Notes under the pieces: model-generated
Seen by the model: the letters and a program-made list of their open reading frames with translations, nothing else
What the model was told of the DNA's origin: nothing
Database searches by the model: none
DNA from: Candidatus Giovannonibacteria bacterium RIFCSPHIGHO2_12_FULL_44_22
Lineage (GTDB): Bacteria; Patescibacteriota; Minisyncoccia; UBA11713; 2-01-FULL-45-33
DNA length: 64,000 nt
Assembly: GCA_001778695.1 (NCBI GenBank)
Contig: MFHU01000003.1
Location: forward strand, 75,112 to 139,111
Direction: 5' to 3'
Made by a program: the position numbers and the translations under genes
In this document: in pieces, positions 13,330-37,029 of the stretch
Layout of the letters: each line of letters starts with the position of its first letter
Numbering within the stretch: the first letter of the stretch is position 1

Positions 13330-14473
13330 AAACATGTCTAATATAGAAATCAAATCTTCGGAGGAGGTAGAGATAATAAAAACTCTTGAGGCCCGGAGCG
13401 ACCACGAGGCAAAAAGATTATTGCGTTTTTTGAAAATGCCGGATTTATCGCGCGCTAAAGCAAGCCCGCTTTATGAATTAATAGAGCGCCTAGTTAACCT
13501 CCCGGAATTTAAATCATTTGATGTTGTAAAAATTCCGGATATTGTCCCCGCCAAAGAAAGTTTTGATTTGTTTGATTTTCCGCTTGACCATCCCACGCGG
13601 AGCAAGTCGGACACATACTATATTAACGACGAATATATTCTTCGCACTCACACTACGGTCATGTGGTATTATTATTTGCTTTCGGAGGCGATTAAAGAAA
13701 AATTAAAAGGCGAAGCGCCAATCGGGGTTTTTTCCTACGGCAAAGTTTACAGGAAAGATGAAATAGATCGCCACCATATGAATGTTTTTCACCAAGTGGA
13801 CGGATTATACCTTTGCCGAAAAAACGAAAAAATTTTTGAAAGGCGGGATTTAGAAGAAGTCCTTGTGAAAATCGCTAAAGCAATATTCGGGAAAGACATA
13901 AAGTATCGCTTTAATGATGATTTTTTTCCGTTTACTTATTCCAGCATTGAAATGGAGATTGAGAAAAAAGATAAATGGATAGAAGTTCTTGGCGCGGGCA
14001 TCGCACAGCCGTCCGTTTTGGAGAAGCTTGGCGTTGATTCTAAAATTTGGGGCGGCTGGGCTTTCGGTTTCGGTTTGGAACGGCTTGCCATAATCAGTAT
14101 GGATTTGCCGGACATACGGCTTTTATGGTCGGAAGATCCGCGGATTAAAAAACAATTGCGCTTGGGAAATAAATATATTCCGGTGAGCAAATATCCGCCG
14201 ATTACTAGAGATATATCTTTTGTCGTCGCCAACGACTTTATTCCAAATAATTATTTTGATTTGATAAGGGATTTGGGAGGCGATTTGGTTGAAGAAGTTA
14301 AGCTGATTGATAAATATGAAAATCTAGAAAAATTCGGCACGGGAAAAATAAGCTACACATACAGAATAATTTACAGAAGCAACGACAGGACTTTGGTTTC
14401 GGGCGAAATTGATAAAATCCAAAACGAAATTTACAAACAAACCGCCAAGCAATTTAACGCCGAATTAAGATGA
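13322..14473 (+). CDS. pheS: Phenylalanine-tRNA ligase, single-chain (mitochondrial-type) form: PheS catalytic core plus a C-terminal FDX-ACB-like anticodon-binding domain
   Basis: HPTRSKSDTYYI...LRTHTT motif. Class II motif 3 GWAFGFGLERLAIISMDLPDIRLLWSEDPR. C-terminal SKYPPITRDISFVV...DLGGDLVEEVKLIDKYE...ISYTYRIIYRSNDRTL resembles the ACB domain of monomeric PheRS. No pheT lies adjacent. Confidence 0.7.
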   Translation: MIKNMSNIEIKSSEEVEIIKTLEARSDHEAKRLLRFLKMPDLSRAKASPLYELIERLVNLPEFKSFDVVKIPDIVPAKESFDLFDFPLDHPTRSKSDTYYINDEYILRTHTTVMWYYYLLSEAIKEKLKGEAPIGVFSYGKVYRKDEIDRHHMNVFHQVDGLYLCRKNEKIFERRDLEEVLVKIAKAIFGKDIKYRFNDDFFPFTYSSIEMEIEKKDKWIEVLGAGIAQPSVLEKLGVDSKIWGGWAFGFGLERLAIISMDLPDIRLLWSEDPRIKKQLRLGNKYIPVSKYPPITRDISFVVANDFIPNNYFDLIRDLGGDLVEEVKLIDKYENLEKFGTGKISYTYRIIYRSNDRTLVSGEIDKIQNEIYKQTAKQFNAELR

Positions 14474-15198
14474 AATCATTTTTACATTTGTTTTATAAAA
14501 TCCGCGGGAAATTTTTAGAAAATTCAGCTAAAAATAAACTTTCTAAATTAAAAAACAGCGAATATAGATTGCCGTATCAAATTCCTTATGTTTCGCAGTA
14601 CGCTTCTAAAGAATTAGCGGAGAGTTATGTTAAAAACGCCGAACTTTTGGCAAGTGACCCAAGGTGGCGCGATTTTGGCGCGGAAACGCCAGAAGAATAC
14701 GCTTTTTGGTCTAGGAGAATTTGCGGAATGGCCTGTTTTCAAATGATTTTATTATCACTTAGACGTCCGACGTCTAAGTTGATGGAATTAGGGAAAAAAG
14801 CGATGACCGCCGGATGCTATTTATTGGATCCCAAAAATCCAAAACGGCTCGTCGGGCTTTTGCATAAACCGTTTTTGAAATTTATTGATAAGTTTGGGCT
14901 TGCCGGGAAACTAATGTGGTATATCGGACCAGCGGTTATCGCCTATGAGATTTTAAATAAAAATTTTGTGATTGCTTCTGTAAGCCACGAAATACGCTTT
15001 AGAGATGCGCGTCCAGAAGATAAAACCGGGCACTTGGTTTTAGTTCATGGGTTTAAAATGAATGGAGGCATAATCGCTGGATTTTATATTCATAATCCTT
15101 CTGGTTTTTACGGCATCTCGCAAGAAAATCATTTTGTCCCGGCTGATGATTTTTTAAATTGCTTCTCGGGCAGGATTATTGTTTTGAAGTTAAAGTAA
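14470..15198 (+). CDS. Hypothetical papain-like (peptidase C39-like) protein
   Basis: VSQ...ICGMACFQMIL Cys block and HLVLVHGF His block. It contains the palindromic insert at 14757-14784. Confidence 0.35.
   Translation: MKSFLHLFYKIRGKFLENSAKNKLSKLKNSEYRLPYQIPYVSQYASKELAESYVKNAELLASDPRWRDFGAETPEEYAFWSRRICGMACFQMILLSLRRPTSKLMELGKKAMTAGCYLLDPKNPKRLVGLLHKPFLKFIDKFGLAGKLMWYIGPAVIAYEILNKNFVIASVSHEIRFRDARPEDKTGHLVLVHGFKMNGGIIAGFYIHNPSGFYGISQENHFVPADDFLNCFSGRIIVLKLK
14757..14784 (+). repeat. Palindromic element CACTTAGACGTC-C-GACGTCTAAGTTGAT inside a CDS, encoding LRRPTSKL
   Basis: An identical 28-nt copy lies at 28894-28921 in an unrelated GT4 gene. The core palindrome is 21 bp. Confidence 0.8.
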
Positions 15199-15308
15199 AT
15201 TTGCAACTTGCTTGCTATAGCGTGATTATTGCAAATTCTAAAGAGTGCAAATTAACCAGCGATAGCTGATTAACTTGTAGTTTGGAAAGGTGTGAAAAAA
15301 AATAAAAA

Positions 15309-15357: not shown

Positions 15358-15693
15358 TCACAAGAATTTCATAAAGGTTAGAAGATGGGAATGCTCATTT
15401 TCGTTTATTTTCAAAATGCGGCAAAGATGACGGCGAAATGGATTTTCTTGGCAATTCATTTTCAAGACTAGTTCCACATTTTGCACCAAACGATTAATTT
15501 CAAAAAAACGCTCAATTTCCGGCGATAGCGACAAAGGATTTAAATAAGCCTCTGTCCATTCTCCCTTTCCATAACAACCACATATCCAGTCAGCAATGAT
15601 TTTAACCTCTTCTGGCGTAACTTTCCATAAATCTGGAGAAATTTCTATGTTTTTCATAATCGCACCCCCATCTTTCTTTATCATATACTTCAT
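15358..15693 (-). CDS. Hypothetical protein
   Basis: ORF only. No recognisable motifs. Confidence 0.3.
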   Translation of the reverse strand: MKYMIKKDGGAIMKNIEISPDLWKVTPEEVKIIADWICGCYGKGEWTEAYLNPLSLSPEIERFFEINRLVQNVELVLKMNCQENPFRRHLCRILKINENEHSHLLTFMKFL

Positions 15694-24614: not shown

Positions 24615-24965
24615 ATGCTTAAAATTTTGGAAACAGATTCAGAGAATAATCCGACATTGGTTGAATATTACGGTCAGAAAATTAAAGAAGGAGACGTAAT
24701 AAATTTCAAAGCAAGTAGATCTGAAAGAAAGCCGCCTAAGTATTTCCTTGTGGATTCCATTATCGAAAAGATACGCAATGGCGATTGTATTGCTGTAACT
24801 TTATTGCAATGCCGACCTACAGTGACTGTGCGGCTTGATCAAAATGATCCAGATGACGAATTCTCTTTTCGAATTCTTACGCCCTGGCAGGCAGTCGGGA
24901 TACTCAATGACTTCGGTGAATCAGTGCTGAAAATTATAAAAGATCTACGCAGAGCTATTGAATAA
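24615..24965 (+). CDS. Hypothetical protein
   Basis: Strong SD GAGGAGGG. No recognisable motifs. Confidence 0.4.
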   Translation: MLKILETDSENNPTLVEYYGQKIKEGDVINFKASRSERKPPKYFLVDSIIEKIRNGDCIAVTLLQCRPTVTVRLDQNDPDDEFSFRILTPWQAVGILNDFGESVLKIIKDLRRAIE

Positions 24966-24974
24966 TTAACTTTC

Positions 24975-25015
24975 CTACGCTACGCTTTCGGCAATGTTTC
25001 GGAAGCGTTTTTTTA
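24975..25015 (+). terminator. Rho-independent terminator
   Basis: CGCTTTCGGCAATGTTTCGGAAGCG followed by TTTTTTT. Confidence 0.45.
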
Positions 25016-25041
25016 TCTCTAATTTTTATGTGATTTATTGA

Positions 25042-25079
25042 TATACTCATTCTTATACGATCGTAGCAAATTGAGTATA
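25042..25079. promoter_or_regulatory. 38-bp palindromic operator, copy 1: TATACTCA-N22-TGAGTATA with central ACGATCGT
   Basis: Read directly. It overlaps -10-like TATACT hexamers upstream of the regulator gene. Confidence 0.6.
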
Positions 25080-25106
25080 CTATATTTATATGCTAAATTA
25101 TAAGAT

Positions 25107-25649
25107 ATGCGGCGGAGAATTATTTACGAGCCAACTTTAAGCGATGCGGCGTTGCTTATTCTTGACGCGGCAGGCAAAATTTTTATTAAATCTTTTTGGC
25201 CGCATCCTTATTATCATACGTTCTGCAATCACAAACCCAAGCAGTCTTTTAGAAACGCCCTTAGTCGTTTGGAAAATAAAGGTTTGATAGTTGGCGAACG
25301 CAGAAACGGCAAAGTTATTTTTAACCTTTCCGATAATGGAGAGAAGCTCGCTAAACGCTTGAAATTGAAACTGGAACTTGCCAAGAAATGGCGCTGGGAC
25401 GGAAAGTGGAGAATTTTAATTTTTGACGTGCCGGAGAAAATCCGAGGGAAGCGCGATTTTTTAAGGCGCGAACTTATTGATTTCGGATTTTATCCTCTTC
25501 AAAAAAGCGTCTGGGTTTATCCTTACAATCTACCGGAAGACTTTTTTGATATTTTTAACGAACTTGATTTTGGAGAACAATTAGTTTTGGTTGAATCCGC
25601 GAATATCAAACAAGACGATTCTATCCGAGCGTTTTTCGGCTTATCTTAA
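25107..25649 (+). CDS. PaaX-like transcriptional regulator (wHTH N-terminus plus a Cas2/VapD-like C-terminal fold)
   Basis: ALSRLENKGLIV...NGKVIFNLSDNGEKL wHTH-like pattern. C-terminal WRILIFDVPEKIRGKRDFLRRELIDFGF...QKSVW resembles the PaaX_C/Cas2-like strand-helix pattern. Confidence 0.45.
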   Translation: MRRRIIYEPTLSDAALLILDAAGKIFIKSFWPHPYYHTFCNHKPKQSFRNALSRLENKGLIVGERRNGKVIFNLSDNGEKLAKRLKLKLELAKKWRWDGKWRILIFDVPEKIRGKRDFLRRELIDFGFYPLQKSVWVYPYNLPEDFFDIFNELDFGEQLVLVESANIKQDDSIRAFFGLS

Positions 25650-25651
25650 AC

Positions 25652-25689
25652 TATACTCATTTTTGTACGATCGTGAATAATTGAGTATA
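25652..25689. promoter_or_regulatory. 38-bp palindromic operator, copy 2; 31 of 38 positions identical to copy 1
   Basis: TATACTCATTTTTGTACGATCGTGAATAATTGAGTATA. It lies directly after the regulator stop and upstream of the surface-protein gene. Confidence 0.6.
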
Positions 25690-25719
25690 GTGGGTTTTTG
25701 TTGATTGTAAAATTTTGCC

Positions 25720-27294
25720 ATGTTAAGCTCATCGGTAATGGATTGGTTCAACAAGTTCACAACAAGCCGGTGGCATTTTTTGTTGGTTATAATTTTGTTG
25801 GGCGCAGCAAATTTTGCTTACGCGTCCGTTGGCGATGTCGCGATTTCCGAAGTTTTATTTGACCCGGCCGGAGGCACGGACACAGGATTAGAATACGTTG
25901 TAATAAAAAATTTTGGTTCCTCCGCGGTGGATGTATCAGGTTGGGATTTATATCCATCGGGCGCCGGATATTTTACTTTGCCCAGCTTTAGTTTAGGTGG
26001 CGGAAAAGAACTTAAAATACATTTGCGGGCAAGCGGTAATAATGATGATGGCAATCTTTACCATACAAATGCTTCTGCCAATATGGGCAACTCATCTGGT
26101 TCTTTGGCGCTTTTTTCTAGCACGACACATAGTAAAGACACGATTATTTCTTATATTAGATATCACAAACCGGGAAGCGGAGAGAGCAAAACATGGGAAA
26201 CGGCCGCCGCGGGCACCGAATTGTGGACTGCCGGAACATTTTTTGATATTTCATCGGGCACTGAAGGAAAAATTTTAAAACTTATTGATTATAATCAAAA
26301 AACGAGCGTGTCCGGCTGGTCTTTGGCTGAAGCTTCTGCTCAAAGCGATGTTGGTGTTGGACCGGCGTCCGTTACAGAAAATGATGTTGCCGCTACATTT
26401 TCCGGAAGCGTTGCTCCGCTGCCGGTGAACCAGATAAAAGCTTATGCCGGGCCGGATCGCGCGGGCATCGCCGGAGGAGAAATATTTTTTGAAGGCTTCG
26501 CCGAAGGTTTGCAAGGCGACCCGTTGGACGGCGCGAGATTTTCTTGGAATTTCGGCGACGGCGCCGCATTAGTAGACGGCAAAAAAATCGGGCACACTTT
26601 TCTTTTTCCAGGCGTTTATACGGTTTCTTTAAACGTGTCCGCGGGAGAATATTCTGCGCTGGATACAGCCAATTTGGTTGTTACCGAGAGCCCACTTTTG
26701 ATTTCTGAGATAAAAACTGGCGCTGATGGCTGGGTTGAGATAAAAAATAATTCAGCTCGGAAAATTGAAATTTCGCGGTTTGGATTTGGAGAAAGTAATT
26801 TCAAGCCATTTTTCTTTCCAGAAAATACTTATTTGGCGCCCTGGGCTTTGGTGGTTTTGGGCACGTCAACTCTGGGATTTATTTTGCCGGAAAGCGGCGA
26901 GATAAAATTGCTTTATCCCAACGGTAAAATTATTTTTTCATCAAATTATCCGAATTTAAATTTAGGGAGCGATGAAAGTTTAAGTCTTGAAAATGGCGGA
27001 CCTGCCTCGCCTGGCGCGAATCAAGGCGGGTGGCTTAAAACAAAAATCACTCCGGGCTTGAAAAACGAGATAACAAAATCTATTGCGCTTTCGGCAAAAA
27101 GTGCCGCGGAACCGAAAGCCAAACCGCCCACGGCCATTGTGGAAAATCTAGGAAACGCCCAAACCGCCTCGGTTATCAGTATTGAAAAACCGTCTTCATT
27201 TTTAAACGACTATTTTTGGCTTTTTGTTGGTCTCGGCGCCGGAATTTTTGCTGGCCTCATTTTTGTGATAATCCGTCACAGTTTTACGTTATAA
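25720..27294 (+). CDS. Cell-surface protein: signal/TM, lamin-tail domain, PKD domain, second lamin-tail domain, C-terminal TM anchor
   Basis: LTD patterns ISEVLFDPAGG..EYVVIKN..VDVSGWDL and LISEIKTGADGWVEIKNNS. PKD-like FSWNFGDGA...GVYTVSLNV. C-terminal hydrophobic anchor. Confidence 0.55.
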   Translation: MLSSSVMDWFNKFTTSRWHFLLVIILLGAANFAYASVGDVAISEVLFDPAGGTDTGLEYVVIKNFGSSAVDVSGWDLYPSGAGYFTLPSFSLGGGKELKIHLRASGNNDDGNLYHTNASANMGNSSGSLALFSSTTHSKDTIISYIRYHKPGSGESKTWETAAAGTELWTAGTFFDISSGTEGKILKLIDYNQKTSVSGWSLAEASAQSDVGVGPASVTENDVAATFSGSVAPLPVNQIKAYAGPDRAGIAGGEIFFEGFAEGLQGDPLDGARFSWNFGDGAALVDGKKIGHTFLFPGVYTVSLNVSAGEYSALDTANLVVTESPLLISEIKTGADGWVEIKNNSARKIEISRFGFGESNFKPFFFPENTYLAPWALVVLGTSTLGFILPESGEIKLLYPNGKIIFSSNYPNLNLGSDESLSLENGGPASPGANQGGWLKTKITPGLKNEITKSIALSAKSAAEPKAKPPTAIVENLGNAQTASVISIEKPSSFLNDYFWLFVGLGAGIFAGLIFVIIRHSFTL

Positions 27295-27302
27295 TTAGAT
27301 AA

Positions 27303-29438
27303 ATGAGCGAAAAACCTGCGGTTTTAGTTTTTACTACCGCTTATTTCCCGTTTGTGGGAGGAGCGGAAGTGGCGATACAGGAAGTGGCAAGAAGGCTCAA
27401 AAATGAGTACGATTTTTTTATTTTTACTTCAAGAATGGACGGCAAACTCCCAGCGCGCGAAAAAAGGCTAGAAGGATTGGTAATCAGAATTGGTTTTGGA
27501 AATAAATTTGATAAATTCTGGCTTTTAATTTTTGGATGGTTTGTAGCTTGGCGGGAATTGAGAAAGTGGCATAGAAAAATTATTTTTTGGGTTATGGATT
27601 TTTCGTTCGGGGCCGCGGTAGCTGGATTTTTGAAAATTTTTTATCCGAAAATTCCGTTGGTTTTTACAATTCAATATGGCTACGGCGACGAAAGAGTTAA
27701 AAAAGGCAGAGGTGGCCTTATGAATTTGGCATTTCGGCTGATACTTTCGCAGGCGGATTATGTTACGGCAATTTCAAATTATTTATTGAATTTATGCAAG
27801 CAGTACGGCTATATTGGCGAGGAAGCGGTAATACACAACGGGGTTGATTTAAAAAAGTTTACAAATCAAGAATCACGAATAGGAAATCATGTGATAATTT
27901 CAACCTCGCGGCGAGTTTACAAAAATGGTCTGGATATTCTGGAAAAGGCCTTCGAGATCATAAAAAAGAAATTTCCAGATGCCGAGTTGAAAATTGTTAG
28001 CGACGTTCCGTATGATGAATTGCCTAAATATTTATGGAAAGCTAGTATCTTCGTCAGACCCTCGCGCTCTGAGGGGATGGGCAATGCGTTTATTGAAGCT
28101 TTAGCGGCCGGATTACCGATAATTGGCACGCCTGTCGGAGGGATTTTAGATATTATTGAGGATGGGCAGACGGGTCTTTTCGCGAAAGTTGACGACCCAC
28201 AAGATTTAGCAGAGAAAATTAAAATTTTACTCGAAGATAAAAAATTGGTGTCGCAAATTATAGAAAATGGTAGAAAAATAGTTGAAGAAAGATTTTCTTG
28301 GGATAAAATCGCGGCGCAATACGCCGAGGTTTTTAATTCGCAATTAAATACAAAAAAAAGAATACTGATAGTCACAGGAATTTTCCCGCCCGATGTCGGT
28401 GGACCGGCGACATACAGCAAAATTTTACTAGACGAGTTGCCTAAAGAAAATTTTTGCGCAAAAGTATTAAGTTTCGGAAGCGTTAAATATTTGCCCAAAG
28501 GCATTAGCCATATTGCTTATTTCCTTAAAGCCATGCGGTTAGGCGCGCGCGCCGATATTATTTTCGCGCAGGATCCGGTGAGTGTGGGGTTGCCCGCGAT
28601 GCTAGCGGCAAAAATTTTGCGCAAAAAATTTATTTTAAAAATCGTGGGCGATTATGCTTGGGAACAAGGCGTTCAGCGGTTCGAGGTGAAAGAGATTTTA
28701 GATGATTTTTTAAATAAGAAATACGGTATTAATGTGGAGGTTTTGAGAAAAATAGAAAAATTTGTCGCAAATCACACAGAAAAAATTATCGTGCCGAGCG
28801 AGTATTTGAAAAAAGTTGTTTCGGCGTGGGGCGTAAATCCGAATAAAATTAAAGTAATTTATAATGCGTTTGATTTTAAAGACTTCGAACACACACTTAG
28901 ACGTCCGACGTCTAAGTTGATTGTTTCGGCGGGTCGTCTTGTTCCGTGGAAAGGATTCGGCACTTTAATTGAGATTATGCCAAAGATTTTAAGAGAAGTG
29001 CCGGACGCGAAGTTGATTATTATTGGAGATGGACCGGAAAGACACAAATTAAAATTACAAGTAGCCACTTGGCGGCTCGGCCGCCAAGTGGAACTTATAG
29101 GAAATCTGCCGCATAAAAAAGTTTTGGAATATCTCGCTTCCGCCGATGCTTTTATTTTAAACACTGCCTACGAAGGATTTTCGCACCAAATTTTGGAGGC
29201 GATGGCAATTGGGGCGCCTGTTATCACGACAAACGTTTGCGGAAATCCGGAGTTGGTGGAAAACAATGTCTCCGGAATTTTGGTCGAATTTAACGATAAG
29301 GAAGCGATTAAAAATTCTATTTTAAAATTATTGAAAGACGAAAAACTTACTCAAAAATTAACCTCCGCCGCTTTCCAAAAATCCAAACAATTTTCAAAAG
29401 AGAGGATGATTAATGAAACGATAAAAATATTATTATGA
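27303..29438 (+). CDS. Tandem two-domain glycosyltransferase (GT4 + GT4)
   Basis: Two EX7E-type motifs: SEGMGNAFIEALAAGLPIIGT and FSHQILEAMAIGAPVITT. Confidence 0.7.
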   Translation: MSEKPAVLVFTTAYFPFVGGAEVAIQEVARRLKNEYDFFIFTSRMDGKLPAREKRLEGLVIRIGFGNKFDKFWLLIFGWFVAWRELRKWHRKIIFWVMDFSFGAAVAGFLKIFYPKIPLVFTIQYGYGDERVKKGRGGLMNLAFRLILSQADYVTAISNYLLNLCKQYGYIGEEAVIHNGVDLKKFTNQESRIGNHVIISTSRRVYKNGLDILEKAFEIIKKKFPDAELKIVSDVPYDELPKYLWKASIFVRPSRSEGMGNAFIEALAAGLPIIGTPVGGILDIIEDGQTGLFAKVDDPQDLAEKIKILLEDKKLVSQIIENGRKIVEERFSWDKIAAQYAEVFNSQLNTKKRILIVTGIFPPDVGGPATYSKILLDELPKENFCAKVLSFGSVKYLPKGISHIAYFLKAMRLGARADIIFAQDPVSVGLPAMLAAKILRKKFILKIVGDYAWEQGVQRFEVKEILDDFLNKKYGINVEVLRKIEKFVANHTEKIIVPSEYLKKVVSAWGVNPNKIKVIYNAFDFKDFEHTLRRPTSKLIVSAGRLVPWKGFGTLIEIMPKILREVPDAKLIIIGDGPERHKLKLQVATWRLGRQVELIGNLPHKKVLEYLASADAFILNTAYEGFSHQILEAMAIGAPVITTNVCGNPELVENNVSGILVEFNDKEAIKNSILKLLKDEKLTQKLTSAAFQKSKQFSKERMINETIKILL
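28894..28921 (+). repeat. Second copy of the CACTTAGACGTCCGACGTCTAAGTTGAT palindromic element
   Basis: Identical 28 nt to 14757-14784. It encodes LRRPTSKL in-frame. Confidence 0.8.
29065..29091 (+). repeat. Hairpin element CCACTTGGCGGC-TCG-GCCGCCAAGTGG (12-bp stem) inside a GT CDS, encoding TWRLGRQV
   Basis: Read directly. A second copy lies at 29835-29873. Confidence 0.8.
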
Positions 29439-30484
29439 AAGTCTTAATGATAAGCGGGGATCCGGGGGTTTTGAATCCGAATAGCGACGCGGGAAAGCGG
29501 ATGGAAGAATATCGCCAAACTCTTGGAACATTAGATATTTTAGTCTGCCGAGGAAATATTTTTAGTTTTATTACAGGATTTTTTCGCGGCGTAAAAATCA
29601 TTCGCAAAAATAAACCCGAAGTTATTACAGCTCAAGATATGGAACATTCTCTATTTGCTTGGATTTTTTCAAGATTATTTAAAGTTCCGTGGCAGATGCA
29701 GATTCATACGGATATTTTTAGTCCGTATTTTTGGCAGGAATCTTTTAAAAATAAAATACGCGTTGTGCTGGCAAAATTCTTGTTGCCTCGAGCAAGTTGT
29801 ATTCGGGTTATGAGCGAAAGAATTAAAGAATCAATAACTTGGCGGCTCGGCCGCCAAGTGGCGGCCGAGTTATTCGTTACAGTTTTGCCAATTTTTGTGG
29901 ATACGGAAAAAATTAAAAATACGCCGATTAAAACCAATCTTCACAAAAAATATCCCGGGCGGTTTATAATTTTGATGGCATCGCGGATAACAAGAGAAAA
30001 AAATATCGTCATGGCCTTAGAGGCCATGCGCGGACTAACGCAGAATGACACGCGGACTAACGCAGAAAAGGTTTTATTGCTGATTATCGGTGATGGGCCG
30101 GAGAAAGAACACTTACGGCGTATGGCGTATAGCTTAAAGCTGGATGAGAGCGTTGTTTTTGAGTCAGCTACTTCCGACCTCGCTTCTTATTATAAAACCT
30201 GCGATTTGTTTTTGCTCACCTCCGATTACGAAGGGTACGGAAGAACTTTGATTGAGGCGGCGGCCATTAAAGCCAAAATAATCTCCTCCGATGTCGGAAT
30301 AGTTCCGGAAATTTTAGAGTTGGATTGTATTTTTAAAATTGGTGATAAGGATGGTTTGGCTGAAAAAATCAACGCCGCTTTGGCAGGCCAACTCAAGCCG
30401 CCAAAACCTGTGATTTTTCAAACAAAAGAGGAATATCTAAGATTATATAAGAATAACTTGGAACAATGCCAAAAAATATTTTAA
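29435..30484 (+). CDS. Glycosyltransferase family 4
   Basis: C-terminal YEGYGRTLIEAAAIKAKIISSDVG. Confidence 0.6.
   Translation: MKVLMISGDPGVLNPNSDAGKRMEEYRQTLGTLDILVCRGNIFSFITGFFRGVKIIRKNKPEVITAQDMEHSLFAWIFSRLFKVPWQMQIHTDIFSPYFWQESFKNKIRVVLAKFLLPRASCIRVMSERIKESITWRLGRQVAAELFVTVLPIFVDTEKIKNTPIKTNLHKKYPGRFIILMASRITREKNIVMALEAMRGLTQNDTRTNAEKVLLLIIGDGPEKEHLRRMAYSLKLDESVVFESATSDLASYYKTCDLFLLTSDYEGYGRTLIEAAAIKAKIISSDVGIVPEILELDCIFKIGDKDGLAEKINAALAGQLKPPKPVIFQTKEEYLRLYKNNLEQCQKIF
29835..29873 (+). repeat. Second copy of the TTGGCGGCTCGGCCGCCAAGTGG hairpin element, extended by CGGCCGAGTTATT
   Basis: ACTTGGCGGCTCGGCCGCCAAGTGG is identical to 29067-29091. It encodes TWRLGRQV. Confidence 0.8.
30011..30072 (+). 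repeat. Hairpin ATGGCCT-TAG-AGGCCAT followed by a tandem 22-bp duplication (CGCGGACTAACGCAG x2) inside a GT4 CDS
   Basis: Read directly. It encodes MALEAMRGLTQNDTRTNAEK. Confidence 0.7.
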
Positions 30485-31509
30485 TTCTTACTCAAAAAGT
30501 TGACAAGAATGATGATAATCTAGGTTTTTTTCATCGCTGGTTGGAGAAATTTGCCGAGAAAACGGGCAAGATTTTTGTCATCGCGAATTTTATCGGCGAG
30601 TATAATTTGCCGGCCAATGTTCAGGTTTTTTCTTTGGGTAAAGAAAAAAGATTGGGCAGAGTTAGGCGCTATATAAACTTTTATAAATATCTTTTTAAAA
30701 CTTTGCCCAAATCGGATGCCGTATTTGTGCATATGATTCCGGCTTGGGTGGTTTTAGTTTGGCCAGTGGCCGCGATTTATAGAAAAAAAATATATTTGTG
30801 GTATACGCACAAATCACTAACTTTTTCGCTTCGGCTTGCCGAAAAATTGGTTGCTAAAATTTTCACGGCTTCTCTTGAAAGCTGCCGTTTAAATTCTAAA
30901 AAAATCGCGGTTGTTGGCCATGGGATTGATACGGAACATTTTAAGCCCAAAGATTTTCCGCATGACCAGGGCGCGTTTAGACTTCTTAGTGTTGGCCGGG
31001 TAACTCCTTCCAAAGATTATGAATTTTTGTTGGAAGCCATGGAGGCTTTAAAAATCCGCGGCTATAGCGCGGTTTTAGATGTTGTGGGTGCTCCGATAAC
31101 CTCCGCAGATTTTAGCTATAAAAATAAGCTTGATGATTTAATTAAAAAGAGAGGATTGCAAAACATTGTCAATTTTATTGGACCAAAAATTTACGCAGAA
31201 ATTCCAGATGTTTATAACGGCCACGATTTATTGCTTCACGCAAGCGAAACCGGAAGCCTTGATAAAGCTGTTTTAGAAGCAATGGCTTGCGGTTTGCCGC
31301 CAGTAACAACCAACGAAGCTTTTAAGAATATTCTGGCGGCCCTGCCCGTCCGGCAGGCGGGGCGGTATGTGTCGCGCAAGAATAGCAGTGAAATGACAGG
31401 AAAAATTATCCAACTAAAAAACACTGGGAAAAATTTATCTTTGCGCGAAATAATAATACAAAACCATAACTTAAATAATTTGATTAAGAAAATTATGGAA
31501 AATTTATGA
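30466..31509 (+). CDS. Glycosyltransferase family 4
   Basis: HASETGSLDKAVLEAMACGLPPVTT. Confidence 0.6.
   Translation: MPKNILILTQKVDKNDDNLGFFHRWLEKFAEKTGKIFVIANFIGEYNLPANVQVFSLGKEKRLGRVRRYINFYKYLFKTLPKSDAVFVHMIPAWVVLVWPVAAIYRKKIYLWYTHKSLTFSLRLAEKLVAKIFTASLESCRLNSKKIAVVGHGIDTEHFKPKDFPHDQGAFRLLSVGRVTPSKDYEFLLEAMEALKIRGYSAVLDVVGAPITSADFSYKNKLDDLIKKRGLQNIVNFIGPKIYAEIPDVYNGHDLLLHASETGSLDKAVLEAMACGLPPVTTNEAFKNILAALPVRQAGRYVSRKNSSEMTGKIIQLKNTGKNLSLREIIIQNHNLNNLIKKIMENL
31341..31364 (+). repeat. Short hairpin CCTGCC-CGTCC-GGCAGG followed by CGGGG; a family member of the gyrB insert
   Basis: Shares CCTGCCCGT and GCAGGCGGGG with 16217-16253. Confidence 0.5.
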
Positions 31510-32339
31510 GAGAAAAAATTCCATGCTCTATTGGTGTTCTCACTTTAAACTCGGGCGGCACTTTGAGGCGCTGTTTGGATTCGCTTAAAGATTTTACAGA
31601 AATCATAATTTGCGACGGCAATAGCACTGACAACACTTTGGAAATCGCCAGGGAGTATGGCGCCAAAATCGTAAAACAGTACGATTCCGATGAGCCGAAT
31701 TTGCGTTGTGAAAAAGACAAGGCCAATGTCCGGATGCGCAATATGCGAGCGGCTTCTTACGACTGGTATTTTTTTATGGATTCGGACGATATACTCCCCG
31801 ATGGAATTACGGAAGAGATTAGAAGCATAGTAACGAATCCTGGTCCGCAATTTTTAGTTTATCGTATGCCCGGGCGTATTTTTATTGATGGACGAGAGAT
31901 AAAACACGAAGCTAGTTACCCTTCGTATCAGACTAGATTGATAAACCGAAAAATCAATCCTTATTTCAAAGGCCGCGTGCATGACCGTCTGGAATTTGAC
32001 CGCAAAAAATATAAAGTAGGGGAATTAAAAAATTATTATGACTTTCATTGGTCAAAAGACCGGGTCCAAAATTATTGGAAGTATCTTAAAATGTATTCCG
32101 GTTGGGAGGCGGAAGTCGCTAACGGCGGGCCGTGGCTGGCATTTTTTTACTGGTGTGTTTATAAACGACTCCGCATCATCGCCGGATATCTCTATAGAAT
32201 TCCTTTAATGTATTTGCGGTACGGATTCCGGGATTCCATGCCTTTAAAACTTCAGCTTTTAACCTTGTGGTATCATTTTTATCTTTTATATTTATTTACC
32301 AAGAAGCAAATTTTTTATGTGCGCAATAAATGGGTTTAA
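31506..32339 (+). CDS. Glycosyltransferase family 2
   Basis: GT-A fold: IGVLTLNSGGTL...ICDGNSTDNT and the DxD motif FMDSDD. Confidence 0.6.
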   Translation: MREKIPCSIGVLTLNSGGTLRRCLDSLKDFTEIIICDGNSTDNTLEIAREYGAKIVKQYDSDEPNLRCEKDKANVRMRNMRAASYDWYFFMDSDDILPDGITEEIRSIVTNPGPQFLVYRMPGRIFIDGREIKHEASYPSYQTRLINRKINPYFKGRVHDRLEFDRKKYKVGELKNYYDFHWSKDRVQNYWKYLKMYSGWEAEVANGGPWLAFFYWCVYKRLRIIAGYLYRIPLMYLRYGFRDSMPLKLQLLTLWYHFYLLYLFTKKQIFYVRNKWV

Positions 32340-34137
32340 CTTCAAAGACGAGGGGCTGATCTTGAAAATGAATCAGGCAACGCGCCACAGGGGCCCAGAC
32401 GGCACAGGAATTTTTTTGGGCGAAAAAATTTCTTTAGGGCATAATCGCTTAAGCATAATTGACTTGAGCGATGCCGCAAATCAGCCTATGTTTTCCTCCG
32501 ACGGCAATTTAGTGATTAGTTTTAACGGAGAAATTTATAATTTCCGCGAGATTAAAAGAGAATTTGAAGATTTTTATAAATTTAAAACCAATAGCGACAC
32601 GGAAGTTATTTTAGCCGCTTATCAAAAATGGGGCGCCGAATTCGTTAAAAAATTAAACGGGATTTTTGCTTTTGTAATTTGGGACAAAACTAAAGAAGAA
32701 TTATTTTTAGCGAGAGACCACATAGGCTTGAAGCCTTTATATTATTTTTTGGATGGCGATAGATTTATTTTTTCTTCTGAAATTAAAGCTATTTTGGAGC
32801 ATGATGTGCCTCGGAAGCTCAACCGCGAAGCATTTAATATTTATTTAAGAACGCTTTACGCGCCGGCGCCGCTCACTATGTTTGAAGGAATTTATAAATT
32901 CCCGCAGGCGCATTATGGCGTTTTCTCCGCCAAAGGCGGATCTGCCTCGGGCGGAAAAAATGGCGAATTTAAACTCACAAAATATTGGGAAATTCCAGTA
33001 ATAAAATATTTTGATACTCCTTTTAAAATTTTGGCGAAAAATTTGCGCGGTGAAATTTTAAAAAGCGTGGAGCGGCAATTAATTTCCGACCGGCCGATCG
33101 GGCTTTACCTTTCCGGCGGGATTGATTCCAGCGCGGTGCTAGATGCTATGCATGAATTTAGAAACAATATTGATACTTTTTCAGTGGGCTTTGAATTGCC
33201 TAATAAAGATGACGAAAATAAATTCAACCAGGATTTTTATTTGGCCAAGCGCACGGCGGCGCTCTATGGGACCAGGCACCATGAAATTTTATTGGAAGAA
33301 AAAGAAGTGCTGAATCTTTGGGAAAAAGTTTTTTTACAGCTTGACGAGCCGATTGCCAACTCCACTGCCATCCCGATGATGAAATTAGCCGAATTCACCA
33401 AGGGCCATGGGGTAGATGTGGTTTTGGGAGGCGACGGCGGGGACGAACTTTTCGGAGGGTACGAAAGATACAGATTGAGCAGAATTATTGGCTATTTCCC
33501 AAAAATATTGTCATTTTTGCCAAAGGGAGTGGACATATTTTCCCGTTTTATGTTTCAAAAAGATCCTGTTTTAAATGAAGTTTTGCAAAAAAAGTTTTTT
33601 GACAGAGAAGTTTCAAGATCGTTTTTTGAAGAACGCTATTTTAAAGAAAATCCGTTCAAAACTTTTGAGGAACTTTTTATGGACGTGGACAGGCGGACGT
33701 GGCTTGTTGATGAGTCGCTAATGCGGACGGATAAAATGTCTATGTTCTCGGCGGTTGAGGCGAGGGCGCCTCTTTTGGACAAAAATCTTATTGAATTCGC
33801 GGCGAAAATTCCCAGAAAATACAAAGTCAGCGCATTCAACACAAAAATTATTTTAAAAGAGGCGTTTATGGGACGGATTCCGGATTTTTTATTATCCCAG
33901 CCGAAACGTGGCTGGTTTTCTCCGGCGGCCAAATGGTTGAGGAACCCCCAAATTCATGCTACCGCTAAAAATATTCTCTCCAAAAATTATTACGCCGAAA
34001 CCGCGCCTATATTTAATTGGGAAAATGTTGATAAAATTCTAAAAGACCATATTGAAGGCAGAAGATACAACCTCACAATTTTGTGGGCGTTGATTAATTT
34101 TCAAGTTTGGGCGAAACTCTATAAAGTTAAATTATGA
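32317..34137 (+). CDS. asnB: Asparagine synthetase (glutamine-hydrolysing)
   Basis: N-terminal MCAING with catalytic Cys2. PP-loop SGGIDSS. 606 aa. Confidence 0.85.
   Translation: MCAINGFNFKDEGLILKMNQATRHRGPDGTGIFLGEKISLGHNRLSIIDLSDAANQPMFSSDGNLVISFNGEIYNFREIKREFEDFYKFKTNSDTEVILAAYQKWGAEFVKKLNGIFAFVIWDKTKEELFLARDHIGLKPLYYFLDGDRFIFSSEIKAILEHDVPRKLNREAFNIYLRTLYAPAPLTMFEGIYKFPQAHYGVFSAKGGSASGGKNGEFKLTKYWEIPVIKYFDTPFKILAKNLRGEILKSVERQLISDRPIGLYLSGGIDSSAVLDAMHEFRNNIDTFSVGFELPNKDDENKFNQDFYLAKRTAALYGTRHHEILLEEKEVLNLWEKVFLQLDEPIANSTAIPMMKLAEFTKGHGVDVVLGGDGGDELFGGYERYRLSRIIGYFPKILSFLPKGVDIFSRFMFQKDPVLNEVLQKKFFDREVSRSFFEERYFKENPFKTFEELFMDVDRRTWLVDESLMRTDKMSMFSAVEARAPLLDKNLIEFAAKIPRKYKVSAFNTKIILKEAFMGRIPDFLLSQPKRGWFSPAAKWLRNPQIHATAKNILSKNYYAETAPIFNWENVDKILKDHIEGRRYNLTILWALINFQVWAKLYKVKL
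32926..32956 (+). repeat. GC-rich palindromic mini-insert in asnB encoding (S)AKGGSASGG(K)
   Basis: TCCGCC...GGCGGA arms. Paralogous to the gatA element at 7889-7918. Confidence 0.6.
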
Positions 34138-35246
34138 AAAAGCTTGTTTATATTGCCAACGCCCGCATTCCCACTGAAAAAGCGCACGGGATCCAGATTA
34201 TGAAAATGTGCGAGGCATTCTCTGCTCAAGTGGTTGATGTTGAGTTGGTATTGCCTAGGCGCTTAAATCGCATTAAAGAAAATCCGTTTGATTATTACGG
34301 CGTTAAAAAGAATTTTAAAATCACCAAACTGCCCACTATAGATTTTATTACTTTAGGCCTAGGACAGATAGGATTTTTTCTCGAGACTTTTATATTTCTA
34401 ATTGCGTCTAGAATCTATTTATTTTTTAGAAGCTACGATATTTTATATACGCGCGAAGAGTGGGCTGGACTGTTTTTTAGAGATTTTGGCGTAGAAATTC
34501 ATTCTTTGCCGGCTAGACCGAGTTTTTTACATAAAAAAACCTGGCGGAAAGCCAAAGCAATTTTTACGCTTACCAGCTTTTTAAAAAATGAGCTTATAAA
34601 ATTCGGCGTTTCGGAAAATAAAATTCTAATCTTGCCGGATGCGGTGGATTTAGCTAAATTTGACATAAAAATTTCCAAAGAGGAGGCAAGAGAAAAACTA
34701 AACTTACCGCAGGACAAAAAAATTATTTTATACATCGGAAGTTTTTATCTTTACGATTGGAAGGGAACCGATGTATTATTGGAAGCTGCAAAGAATTTTG
34801 GAGAAGATTTTTTGTTTTTGCTTGTCGGAGGTTCAGAAAAGGAAATCTCAAATCTCAAATCGCAAGTCACAAATCTCAAAAATATTAAGTTTATTGGCCA
34901 TAAGCCATATGCCGAAATTCCAAATTATTTAAAATCCGCCGATATTTTAGTCTTGCCGAATAAAGCTGGGCACAAAATGTCGGAGAAACATACTTCGCCA
35001 CTCAAACTTTTTGAATACATGGCTTCAGGGCGGCCTATTGTGGCATCGGATTTGCTGTCTCTTCGTGAAATTCTCACGGAACAGGAGGCAATATTTTTCA
35101 AACCGGACGACCCATTAGATTTAGCGCTCAAGATTAAAGAAATTTTAGTCAACCAAAGTTTGGCCGAGCAAATATCTCAAAACGCCCGTGAAAAAGTTCA
35201 AAACTACACCTGGCAAAACCGCGCCCATCGCGCATTGATTTTTTGA
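34134..35246 (+). CDS. Glycosyltransferase family 4
   Basis: EKHTSPLKLFEYMASGRPIVASD. Confidence 0.6.
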   Translation: MKKLVYIANARIPTEKAHGIQIMKMCEAFSAQVVDVELVLPRRLNRIKENPFDYYGVKKNFKITKLPTIDFITLGLGQIGFFLETFIFLIASRIYLFFRSYDILYTREEWAGLFFRDFGVEIHSLPARPSFLHKKTWRKAKAIFTLTSFLKNELIKFGVSENKILILPDAVDLAKFDIKISKEEAREKLNLPQDKKIILYIGSFYLYDWKGTDVLLEAAKNFGEDFLFLLVGGSEKEISNLKSQVTNLKNIKFIGHKPYAEIPNYLKSADILVLPNKAGHKMSEKHTSPLKLFEYMASGRPIVASDLLSLREILTEQEAIFFKPDDPLDLALKIKEILVNQSLAEQISQNAREKVQNYTWQNRAHRALIF

Positions 35247-35368
35247 GTGAACTCACTCCCGGCTATTTATTTTTTCTAAATTTTAGTGCCAAAACCACGT
35301 AAAGAGAATCAAAAATATCGCGCATAGAAACTTGCTTTGAGCAAATTTTGTTATATTATTGTACCAAT

Positions 35369-36082
35369 ATGTCTAAAGTCGATACCGCTGTTATTTTAGC
35401 CGGAGGCAAGGGGCTTCGTTTAAGGCCTGAGACTATAGACAAGCCTAAGGCCATGGTGAGGGTTGCCGGTAAACCCATAATTGAATGGGTTATTCTTTGG
35501 CTTAAAAAAAATGGCATCAAAAATATTGTTTTGAGCGTGGATTACAAAAAGGAAACCCTAGCGAGTCATTTAGGAGACGGCCGTGGCTTCGGAGTTAAAA
35601 TAATTTATAATCACCACAAGGGGGCAAAAGATACCGGGGACGCTTTTCGGAGTGTTTTTAAAAATATAAATCTTCCGGAAACTTTTATCGCGATGAACGG
35701 AGACCAAATAACCAACCTTTCTATTAAAAAATTAGTCGCGCATCATGAAAAGTACCGACCGATTGCCACTGTGGCAGTTTGTCCTATGAAAAGCCCTTTC
35801 GGCATTGTGCATCTAGATGAGAATCATACTATTAGAGCTTTCCATGAAAAGCCGATTTTATATGATAAGCTTATGAATACAGGTATTTACATTTTTGAAC
35901 GCGGGATTCATCATTATTTGCCAAAACATGGAGCAATTGAAAAGACCACTTTTAAGAAATTAGTTAGGGAGAAGCAACTCAATGCTTATGCCCATCGCGG
36001 TTTTTTTAGCACAGTAAACGACCACAAAGACTTGGCATCCACAGAAGAAATTTTAAAAAGAGCAAAGCTTAATTTCATATGA
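35369..36082 (+). CDS. Sugar-phosphate nucleotidyltransferase
   Basis: AVILAGGKGLRLRP...DKPKAMV. Start chosen at MSKVD. Confidence 0.6.
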   Translation: MSKVDTAVILAGGKGLRLRPETIDKPKAMVRVAGKPIIEWVILWLKKNGIKNIVLSVDYKKETLASHLGDGRGFGVKIIYNHHKGAKDTGDAFRSVFKNINLPETFIAMNGDQITNLSIKKLVAHHEKYRPIATVAVCPMKSPFGIVHLDENHTIRAFHEKPILYDKLMNTGIYIFERGIHHYLPKHGAIEKTTFKKLVREKQLNAYAHRGFFSTVNDHKDLASTEEILKRAKLNFI

Positions 36083-37029
36083 GAATTCTTATTACCGGCG
36101 TTACTGGTTTTATCGGAAGCGAGCTCGCGCGGGAGCTCTTAAAAACAGGGGAGTATGAACTTGCCGGGCTGGTTCGCGCCACCTCTGACAGGGGTCATCT
36201 GGACAATATAGCCGATTTGGCGTCAAAACTTCAGCTTTTTTACGCCAACTTCACGGATTGGCACGCTATCCAGCAAGTTGTGCGCTCTTTTCGGCCGAGC
36301 GTAATTTTTCATCTCGGCGCCCAAACTGCAGTCAGGCAGTCTTTTGAACTTTCGCACGAATTCAACGAGACAAATTTTTTGGGGACGATAAATCTCGCGC
36401 ACGCGGCTTTGGAGGTCTCGAATTTCAAGAAATTCATTTTCGCGTCTACAATGGAGGTCTATGGCTGGCAGAAAATCAGGAAAGCATTCAAGGAAGAAAC
36501 AATTTTGTGTCCTGCAAGCCCCTACGCCGTTTCCAAGGCCGCTTCGGAATATTATCTAGAAATGGCGGCAAAAGCCTACGGCTTGCCTTATTTGATTTCT
36601 CGGGCTTGCAATACCTACGGTCGGAAACATAATACGGGATTCATCGTGGAATATCTGATAACAACAATGCTCGCCGGCAAAGATGTTTATATCGGCACTC
36701 CAAAAGCCGTACGGGATATGATGTACGCGAAAGACCATGTAAGTGCCTATTTGAAACTTTTAAAAACTCCTTTAATAAATCAGACTTTCAATTTCGGCAC
36801 CAGTTCCAAAACTAAAATGCTGGATCTCGCCATAAAAATTAAACAGAAGCTTAATTTTAAGGGCAAAATTATTTCCCACTTTCCCGCGAATTATCCGTAT
36901 CGTCCGGTGGCGGAAGAATTTCTTTCAATTGACGCGTCCAAAGCCAAACGCCTTTTGAAATGGAAACCTAAATATTCTTTGGATAAAGGTTTGGACAAAA
37001 CCATCGCTTATTGGAAAAAACAAATTTAA
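36079..37029 (+). CDS. NAD-dependent epimerase/dehydratase
   Basis: ILITGVTGFIGSEL Rossmann motif and YAVSKAASE (YxxxK). Confidence 0.7.
   Translation: MRILITGVTGFIGSELARELLKTGEYELAGLVRATSDRGHLDNIADLASKLQLFYANFTDWHAIQQVVRSFRPSVIFHLGAQTAVRQSFELSHEFNETNFLGTINLAHAALEVSNFKKFIFASTMEVYGWQKIRKAFKEETILCPASPYAVSKAASEYYLEMAAKAYGLPYLISRACNTYGRKHNTGFIVEYLITTMLAGKDVYIGTPKAVRDMMYAKDHVSAYLKLLKTPLINQTFNFGTSSKTKMLDLAIKIKQKLNFKGKIISHFPANYPYRPVAEEFLSIDASKAKRLLKWKPKYSLDKGLDKTIAYWKKQI

Follow-up and report, generated by a model that had tools for sequence, protein, structure and literature searches.

The regulator locus and its two palindromes

The stretch of DNA analysed here, referred to as the window, comprises 64,000 nt of Candidatus Giovannonibacteria bacterium RIFCSPHIGHO2_12_FULL_44_22 (contig MFHU01000003.1, positions 75,112 to 139,111 of the forward strand), and our subject is a gene for a short PaaX-like regulator that lies in it between two copies of a 38-bp palindrome. 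An earlier note on this DNA had reported nested palindromes at 25042-25079 and 25652-25689, and the pattern TATACTCA-N7-ACGATCGT-N7-TGAGTATA is indeed present at both places. The features of the locus, in window coordinates, are as follows.

24982-25018, + strand: intrinsic terminator of an upstream 116-aa open reading frame (ORF), called by the terminator scan (stem 24982-25008, end of the T-run 25018)
25042-25079, no strand: upstream 38-bp dyad site, TATACTCATTCTTATACGATCGTAGCAAATTGAGTATA, with arms TATACTCA and TGAGTATA, core ACGATCGT and AT-rich spacers without symmetry; proposed operator overlapping the regulator promoter
25076-25081, + strand: -10-like hexamer TATACT on the right-hand border of the upstream site, preceded by TTATAC at a spacing of 17 nt; putative promoter element, read from the sequence
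25107-25649, + strand: regulator gene, 180 aa, probable winged helix plus Cas2-like domain (PaaX_M)
25652-25689, no strand: downstream 38-bp dyad site, TATACTCATTTTTGTACGATCGTGAATAATTGAGTATA; proposed second operator (auxiliary, roadblock or head-of-operon)
25686-25691, + strand: -10-like hexamer TATAGT on the right-hand border of the downstream site, preceded by TTGTAC (25663-25668) at a spacing of 17 nt; putative promoter element, read from the sequence
25720-27294, + strand: gene for a secreted protein with LTD/PKD domains, candidate target of the downstream site in this lineage

The two 38-mers are identical at 32 of 38 positions (31 had been counted before), and each is self-complementary at 30 of 38. 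The arm sequence TATACTCA occurs four times in the 64 kb, every time inside one of the two sites, against an expected 0.53, and the full pattern with up to three mismatches matched twice in the window and never in 100 shuffles. The further copies for which the earlier note had proposed a search are thus lacking in the window at that tolerance, solo sites being found in other genomes, as described below. The repeats are spaced 610 bp apart with the regulator gene between them. The upstream site ends 27 nt before the regulator ATG (25107). The downstream site begins 2 nt past the regulator's TAA codon (25647-25649), and 30 nt separate its end from the start codon of the LTD/PKD gene (ATG at 25720); the dyads lie 47 and 50 nt, respectively, from the next ATG.

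The terminator upstream of the regulator has a 10-bp stem with five G-C pairs followed by a T-run (-11.9 kcal/mol). From its position it follows that a promoter of the regulator's own lies in the 88 nt between the end of the T-run and the ATG and, since the palindrome takes up 38 of these, that the upstream site must overlap or abut this promoter. It also follows that the palindromes differ from the type of terminator used in this genome. The earlier note had described -10-like hexamers overlapping both copies, which holds: TATACT lies inside the left arm of each site, in addition to the TATACT and TATAGT at the right edges, so that such hexamers belong to the sequence of the arms. Each site may contain a promoter, TTATAC-N17-TATACT in the upstream and TTGTAC-N17-TATAGT in the downstream one, and the downstream TATAGT is conserved in the loci L001 and L098 introduced below. 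Matches in a promoter scan were no commoner than in shuffled sequence.

Among the neighbours of the regulator in the window and in L001 are SecD, the LTD/PKD protein, glycosyltransferases and an ABC exporter. In the window the LTD/PKD gene is the first of nine co-directional ORFs of at least 150 aa that follow one another closely (25720-37029), glycosyltransferase genes included, and the syntenic cluster of L001 has ABC-exporter genes as well. The 116-aa ORF (24615-24965), between secD and the terminator, matches nothing in Pfam or NCBIfam. The locus L001, which is 94% identical, lacks this ORF, and its regulator directly follows secD.

The protein family and its linkage to the palindromes

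The earlier note had assigned the regulator an N-terminus like a winged helix-turn-helix (wHTH) and a Cas2-like C-terminal part, and this architecture is borne out by the domain match for the second part and mainly by the fold model for the first. Residues 96-171 match PF20803 (PaaX_M) at 7.6e-22, with 77.6 bits against a cut-off of 24, and the wHTH family PF07848 is matched at 9.4e-5, with 23.0 bits, just under the cut-off of 24.8. The AlphaFold model of the regulator (mean predicted local distance difference test score, pLDDT, 88) begins with a helix-helix-helix-strand-strand arrangement resembling the winged helices of AspA, PadR and MarR, and its C-terminal part resembles Cas2. The best fold match of the model is Escherichia coli PaaX (8A39, 183 alignment columns superposed), followed by 3L09 and Rv0674. 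A profile built from 50 homologues matched the same PaaX structure at 4.9e-9 over chain residues 54-171 of 316, and the Cas2 model of NCBIfam scored just under its cut-off. The protein is a short PaaX relative and not PaaX proper, because it stops at residue 180 without the C-terminal effector domain of PaaX, scores only 55.4 with the PaaX equivalog TIGR02277 (NCBIfam; cut-off 264.55) and has no paa genes nearby.

The nearest relatives are encoded in Candidatus Giovannonibacteria and other genomes of the candidate phyla radiation (CPR). Clustered at 50% identity, the family numbers 7150 clusters under E<=1e-3 and 5023 under the stricter E<=1e-10, and the best 150 clusters all consist of proteins of about 180-200 aa. 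Its members keep motifs of Cas2 type, WDGKWR-(I/L)-x-IFD(I/V)PE...R...R...LQKSVW, which E. coli PaaX has lost, and the invariant residues include D98, D107, R116, R120, Q132 and S134. No homologue was found in 2.9 million viral contigs, and a phage or mobile-element origin was rejected on that ground. In the open literature we found no description of short CPR PaaX-like proteins or of flanking palindromes, and it appears that no member of this short PaaX-like family has been characterised so far.

The linkage of the palindrome pair to the gene was examined in the close homologues L001-L005 and in 80 metagenomic loci of relatives at 29-61% identity. A strict test, blind to the core, called for two 38-mers, one within 180 nt of each gene end, each self-complementary at 24 or more of its 38 positions and agreeing with the other at no fewer than 26; as controls, the upstream flank of one locus was paired with the downstream flank of another. 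The test was passed by 53 of 72 homologous loci (29-94% protein identity) and by 2 of 144 controls. Inspection with locus-specific arms and other cores raised the number of loci with a flanking pair to about 65-70 of 82, and several of the loci lacking a pair have truncated flanks; in nearly all loci fetched, a palindrome of the same size stands on both sides of the gene. Strong palindromes in the 509 kb of fetched loci lay within 150 bp of the gene in 71 of 95 cases, an enrichment of about 68-fold. The arms vary by lineage and yet mostly agree between the two sites of one locus, and when pair positions were compared between the two sites, 586 were identical, 193 carried single changes and 43 compensatory double changes. 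The suggestion in the earlier note that the palindromes are the regulator's own sites is thus strengthened, since they travel with the gene, their arms follow the protein lineage and their geometry is like that of the PaaX operator.

The anatomy of the site was derived family-wide from 128 distinct sites. The site is 38 bp long, and its symmetry ends sharply at +/-19, complementarity collapsing at position 19 from the dyad. Its centre is R-C-K-R|Y-M-G-Y. The commonest cores are of the CGRYCG type (CGATCG, CGGTCG, CGACCG and CGGCCG), a second class consists of CTATAG, CCATGG and CTATCG, and CGTACG, CAGGTG and CGTATATACG are rarer. The central step is purine-pyrimidine in every case, even where its two bases are not complementary, and the base beside the centre is complementary in 91%. 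Positions 4-8 are AT-rich and only 60-67% complementary, and positions 9-18 are 74-91% complementary (80-91% from position 10) with no family-wide base preference; some sites are perfect 42/42 palindromes. On these comparisons the anatomy reads as the signature of a sequence recognised by one protein and not of a stem kept only for pairing, and recognition of double-stranded DNA is favoured because the symmetry crosses the exact centre, where it would be needless in a hairpin loop. With phylogeny uncontrolled, the core class tracks best with the columns E110, P109 and R120 of the Cas2-like domain and not with the winged helix, and E110 is replaced by Q or H in all five loci of the CCATGG class. 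This is a weak hint that the Cas2-like part may lie over the centre of the site.

The placement of the sites is likewise regular. The left edge of the downstream site lies a median of 4.5 nt past the regulator stop where the next gene is convergent and 10 nt where it is co-directional, and its distance to that neighbour has medians of 44 and 89 nt, respectively. In about 70% of loci the site begins within 15 nt of the stop codon, and given the footprint of RNA polymerase, such a site is close enough to stall the enzyme before the stop codon has been transcribed. The next gene is convergent in 34 of 66 loci and, among loci with sites, in 28 of 56 (the other 28 being co-directional), with long, real genes among the convergent neighbours. 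Even among the 28 co-directional loci, 26 have the site closer to the regulator stop than to the start codon that follows. Because the downstream site abuts the stop whatever the orientation of the neighbour, the pair goes with the regulator gene, and the downstream copy is no general operator of the next gene. The right edge of the upstream site is a median of 22.5 nt from the regulator ATG, versus 76 nt from the upstream gene. A fixed promoter geometry based on the -10-like hexamers was considered and dropped, as only 9 of 62 upstream sites carry such a hexamer on their right-hand border and the distance from dyad to ATG varies broadly. The neighbouring genes are an assortment of housekeeping genes (among them tRNA synthetases, gatB, ftsW, tsaD, frr, murein ligases, lepA and parB), and a common regulon could not be drawn from so heterogeneous a set.

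Further copies and a natural deletion

Further copies were sought by a genome scan with one genome per species, using the pattern ATACTCA-N8-CGRYCG-N8-TGAGTAT with exact 7-nt arms, which misses degenerate sites. It returned 15 stretches, all but one from CPR-type assemblies or bins with the same gene; the sole exception, L095, looks like a chance match within a G+C-rich gene. Exact copies number one to three per genome. Solo sites, away from a regulator gene, were found as follows.

L086, 399-437 (MHOT01000005.1, Candidatus Staskawiczbacteria): in frame inside holB (DNA polymerase III delta')
L087: 18 nt before tsaD, in the same genome as the regulator locus L096
L091: 9 nt after mfd
L093: in the same genome as the regulator locus L092
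L094, 4345-4382: 62 nt upstream of lepA, in another Giovannonibacteria genome

Where they can be compared, solo sites share arms and spacers with the regulator-flanking sites of their own genome (L087 with L096, L093 with L092). The L094 site is identical at 37 of 38 positions to the downstream site of the window, non-symmetric spacers included, and the flanks have no similarity. The site inside holB, self-complementary at 36 of 42 positions, has TATACTCA arms and the core CGATCG, and the LYSNFSDRENLSI that it encodes falls after the first cysteine of the HolB zinc module and before its CGNCVTC motif.

When the metagenomic loci were searched with their own sites, 16 further matches appeared, against none in shuffled sequence. 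Nine of these are flanking sites missed earlier, and most of the others stand at the distal 3' end of the transcription unit that adjoins the regulator (L019 c3240; L022 c6221 and c6321; L056 c5467; L059 c848; L060 c1342). The layout is site-[gatB<-obg<-]-site-[regulator->]-site in L059 and L060, regulator-site-[radical SAM]-site in L056, and regulator-site-[two genes including ftsW]-two sites in L022. With these extra 3' copies at the obg-gatB, ftsW and radical-SAM units, whole units are therefore bracketed by sites.

Two of the genes at such sites carry nuclease insertions. A PD-(D/E)XK_3 nuclease domain lies inside the GatB of L059 (898-2775, - strand; residues 225-339), being absent from the L060 orthologue, and another inside the LepA of L094 (4444-6738, + strand; residues 83-197). 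Both genes adjoin palindromic sites.

One locus has lost the regulator. In L098 (CAYIFM010000026.1, 6485-6641) the regulator gene and the upstream site are deleted, and the order is SecD, the upstream terminator, the last ~20 nt of the regulator reading frame, the downstream site and the LTD leader. The downstream site and LTD leader are 91% identical to those of the window, compared with 72% for the adjacent secD. Because ~20 nt of the regulator 3' end are kept beside the downstream site, this is an ordinary deletion, and a clean excision between the palindromes was rejected. The bin of L098 is labelled Saccharibacteria, and its sequence is Giovannonibacteria-like. In the window, control of the LTD/PKD gene by the downstream site stays plausible, because the site heads the co-directional run of nine ORFs and because L098 keeps both site and leader.

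The palindromes as probable cognate sites of the regulator

We consider it likely, at a probability of roughly 0.8, that the two 38-bp palindromes are the cognate binding sites of the protein encoded between them. We infer that the short PaaX-type regulator would bind the 38-mer, most likely as a dimer, with its two winged-helix domains reading the outer 8-10-bp arms, about 27-30 bp apart, and a Cas2-like dimerisation core sitting over the conserved central CGRYCG. The upstream site, overlapping the regulator's own promoter region, would provide negative autoregulation in the manner of PaaX at its promoter Px. The downstream site would be a second operator of the regulator gene, looping to the upstream site and/or acting as a roadblock past the stop. 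Such a roadblock could end or truncate the regulator's own transcript, on the principle of LacI at O3, and halt read-through into the next region; the usual position of the site, 0-15 nt from the stop, has a geometry compatible with this. In the window the downstream site might also gate the operon of the LTD/PKD and glycosyltransferase genes. For this mechanism in full, in which two cognate operators serve autoregulation, the upstream one by occluding the promoter and the downstream one as an auxiliary or roadblock site, we would put the chances at slightly above even.

Several observations weigh against the palindromes being operators of the regulator. Copies at the 3' ends of other genes, and one inside holB, are in odd places for a classical operator. 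The distance from the upstream dyad to the ATG is spread widely, from 10 to 150 nt, and a consensus scan calls no promoter on the + strand. No simple code from recognition helix to arm is visible: the helices PKQSFRNAL, SRQTFSNTL and TPSYLRRTL are all paired with TATACTCA arms, and SFRN helices are paired with two different arms. Mismatches in the outer arms are more often G:T (63) than A:C (34), and in L012 and L024 the upstream and downstream arms differ from each other while each remains self-complementary; this lean to G:T and these differing arms also fit a role based on pairing. Finally, a run of five T stands 5 nt (GTGGG) past the downstream palindrome of the window, where the site may have a weak terminator role.

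A role in RNA, or in single-stranded DNA, would make the palindromes hairpins that stabilise, terminate or translationally control the regulator mRNA, the protein perhaps recognising the loop. The high complementarity of arms otherwise free in sequence, the perfect 42/42 cases and the position directly after the stop, the usual place of 3' hairpins, all agree with this, as do predicted RNA folds of -9.5 and -14.2 kcal/mol (z-scores -2.2 and -3.9) and the RNA-binding-type fold of the Cas2-like domain. However, the symmetry crosses the would-be loop, pairing in the inner 5 bp of each arm reaches only 60-67%, and pair-breaking single changes between the sites of a locus far exceed compensatory doubles. 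G:T mismatches outnumber A:C by 78 to 43 in downstream sites and by 70 to 57 in upstream sites, but most mismatches are not wobble and the G:T excess is weak. Upstream of the upstream site there is also too little room for a promoter transcribing the whole palindrome. Intrinsic termination, which the earlier note had named among the findings that would count against operators, was rejected: canonical terminators are separate and adjoin the sites, the scan that called 24982-25008 did not call the palindromes, and T-runs follow 2 of 65 downstream sites, compared with 20 of 390 random positions. The only Rfam match within 24800-25900 is sub-threshold and corresponds to the terminator (24953-25016), the palindromes matching no family. 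On balance a hairpin role is unlikely. The site-gene-site unit could also be a small mobile or recombining cassette, with the palindromes as recombination or transposition ends and the Cas2-like domain as a nuclease or integrase partner. It would then resemble REP elements with RAYT (repetitive extragenic palindromes and their associated tyrosine transposase), the ends of IS200/IS605, integron attC, hix sites or the duplication of CRISPR repeats. Two direct copies do wrap the gene tightly, solo copies occur elsewhere in the genomes, one of them in frame inside holB, and the L094 site is nearly identical to that of the window in unrelated flanks; the family keeps the Cas2-like motifs lost by E. 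coli PaaX, and orthologues 64-65% identical differ in genomic context. Against this, close relatives have the sites in the same position and in conserved synteny (window/L001, L008/L009, L059/L060, L066/L068, L069/L073), copy number is low (two in 64 kb), no recombinase or transposase is consistently near the loci examined, viral contigs hold no homologue and the sole presence/absence case, L098, is an imprecise deletion and not a site-to-site excision. We regard a cassette as quite improbable.

The earlier note had proposed an autoregulated repressor whose downstream site controls the next gene; taken as a general rule, with the upstream site for autoregulation and the downstream site only as the operator of its neighbour, this is doubtful. 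In the window it is favoured by the similar distance of both dyads from the next ATG, the -10-like hexamers at the right edges and the long co-directional operon headed by the downstream site, which L098 keeps before the LTD gene; an LTD-domain gene is downstream in L003 too, and in other genomes orphan sites precede tsaD and lepA at distances of 18-62 nt. Yet the downstream site is as frequent with a convergent neighbour, it lies nearer to the regulator stop in the co-directional loci and the neighbours have no common function, so that control of the surface operon is plausible for the window and does not extend to the family as its logic. Of a probability similar to that rule, and therefore also rather unlikely, is a boundary system in which the protein would bind both ends of transcription units (its own gene and, in certain genomes, neighbouring units such as those of obg-gatB, ftsW and radical SAM) and loop, insulate or roadblock-terminate them, or else a domesticated couple like that of REP elements and RAYT, with a catalytic Cas2-type acidic motif. 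Lastly, another factor might bind the sites, or they might be bidirectional promoters, symmetric and with no repressor of their own; their link to the gene would then be indirect. Some arms do resemble -35 and -10 boxes, as in TTGACA-N18-TATGAT (L072) and TCGACA-N17-TAAAGT (L007), and the missing helix-to-arm code would suit this, but the sites are specific to the flanks of this gene family, their arms are lineage-specific and common to all copies within a genome, and their geometry is like that of the one characterised family member, E. coli PaaX. We give this explanation very little credence.

Comparison with known systems

If the palindromes are cognate sites of the regulator, the closest known counterpart would be PaaX itself, which in E. 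coli recognises the 39-bp operator TGATTC-N27-GAATCA and represses its own promoter Px (PMC9493321). Like PaaX, its best match in both sequence and fold, the window protein has a Cas2-like domain, which in its fold model follows a winged helix, and short inverted repeats with a long spacer are common to the PaaX operator and the proposed one, the latter being 8-N22-8 over 38 bp and of a different sequence. The window protein differs in the absence of the C-terminal effector (phenylacetyl-CoA) domain, in its score far below the equivalog cut-off and in its surroundings, which hold no paa genes in the window and assorted housekeeping genes at other loci. The conserved central CGRYCG, the second site at the gene 3' end and the retained Cas2-type motifs are features of the CPR family. 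For the downstream site the parallel is LacI with its auxiliary operator O3, which sits at the 3' end of lacI and takes part in looping to O1. LacI bound at O3 is a roadblock to transcription of its own gene, the outcome being truncated mRNA and a truncated, SsrA-tagged product (PMC3711431). Both have a site at the end of the repressor's own gene, in most loci here only a few nucleotides from the stop. The protein families are unrelated, however, and in the CPR family the 3' site equals the 5' site in strength and symmetry and is conserved family-wide; the roadblock itself is the proposed part.

Repressor genes between cognate palindromic operators that cooperate at a distance are also known from phages, in lambda CI with its OL/OR looping and in TP901-1 CI with its downstream operator OD. 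The CPR unit is chromosomal instead, consists of a single gene with one site per side and lacks homologues in viral contigs. REP elements with their RAYT present a single gene flanked by cognate palindromes, with further solo copies at gene ends and occasionally inside genes, but the CPR system has no HUH nuclease, has few copies per genome and not tens to hundreds, and shows stable synteny in close relatives. The C-terminal half of the regulator shares its fold and motifs with Cas2. Unlike a CRISPR locus, which has three or more regularly spaced repeats with spacers of 25-50 bp, there are only two repeats, 610 bp apart around the gene, with no repeat-spacer array, and cas1 was not found among the neighbours of the window regulator or of the L001 locus.

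Self-control by roadblock or loop is known from single textbook cases. The constant 3' site beside the stop suggests such self-control here, which has not previously been seen as a family-wide design, and our results point to a new one, in which a repressor-like gene has a copy of its probable site on either side. Almost nothing is known of gene regulation in CPR bacteria (Patescibacteria). As each member carries its probable site twice, the family offers testable protein-DNA pairs, in dozens of lineages here and potentially in thousands family-wide, and with them a natural data set for how dimers of winged-helix plus Cas2-like proteins may read DNA, as well as a route to predicting small regulons in uncultivated bacteria. 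In this genome the system may gate an operon for a surface protein and glycosylation, which is relevant to an ultra-small organism living attached to other cells.

Other palindromes of the window deserve mention. Two tandem palindromes of 38-42 bp at 15196-15283, of the same general type and of a different arm class, have dyads at ~15217 (core CTATAG, arms AATTTGCAA) and ~15262 (core CGATAG) and lie between the convergent genes 14470-15198 (+ strand, Peptidase_C39-like) and 15358-15693 (- strand, no Pfam match). Since the window has no second PaaX_M gene, these may be solo sites of a paralogue encoded elsewhere. Two G+C-rich palindromes at ~7881-7922 (...TCCGCCAGAGGGGGATCCGCATCTGGCGGA...) and ~32919-32960 (...TCCGCCAAAGGCGGATCTGCCTCGGGCGGA...) are similar to each other, have A/T runs alongside and look like bidirectional terminators or members of a small repeat family.

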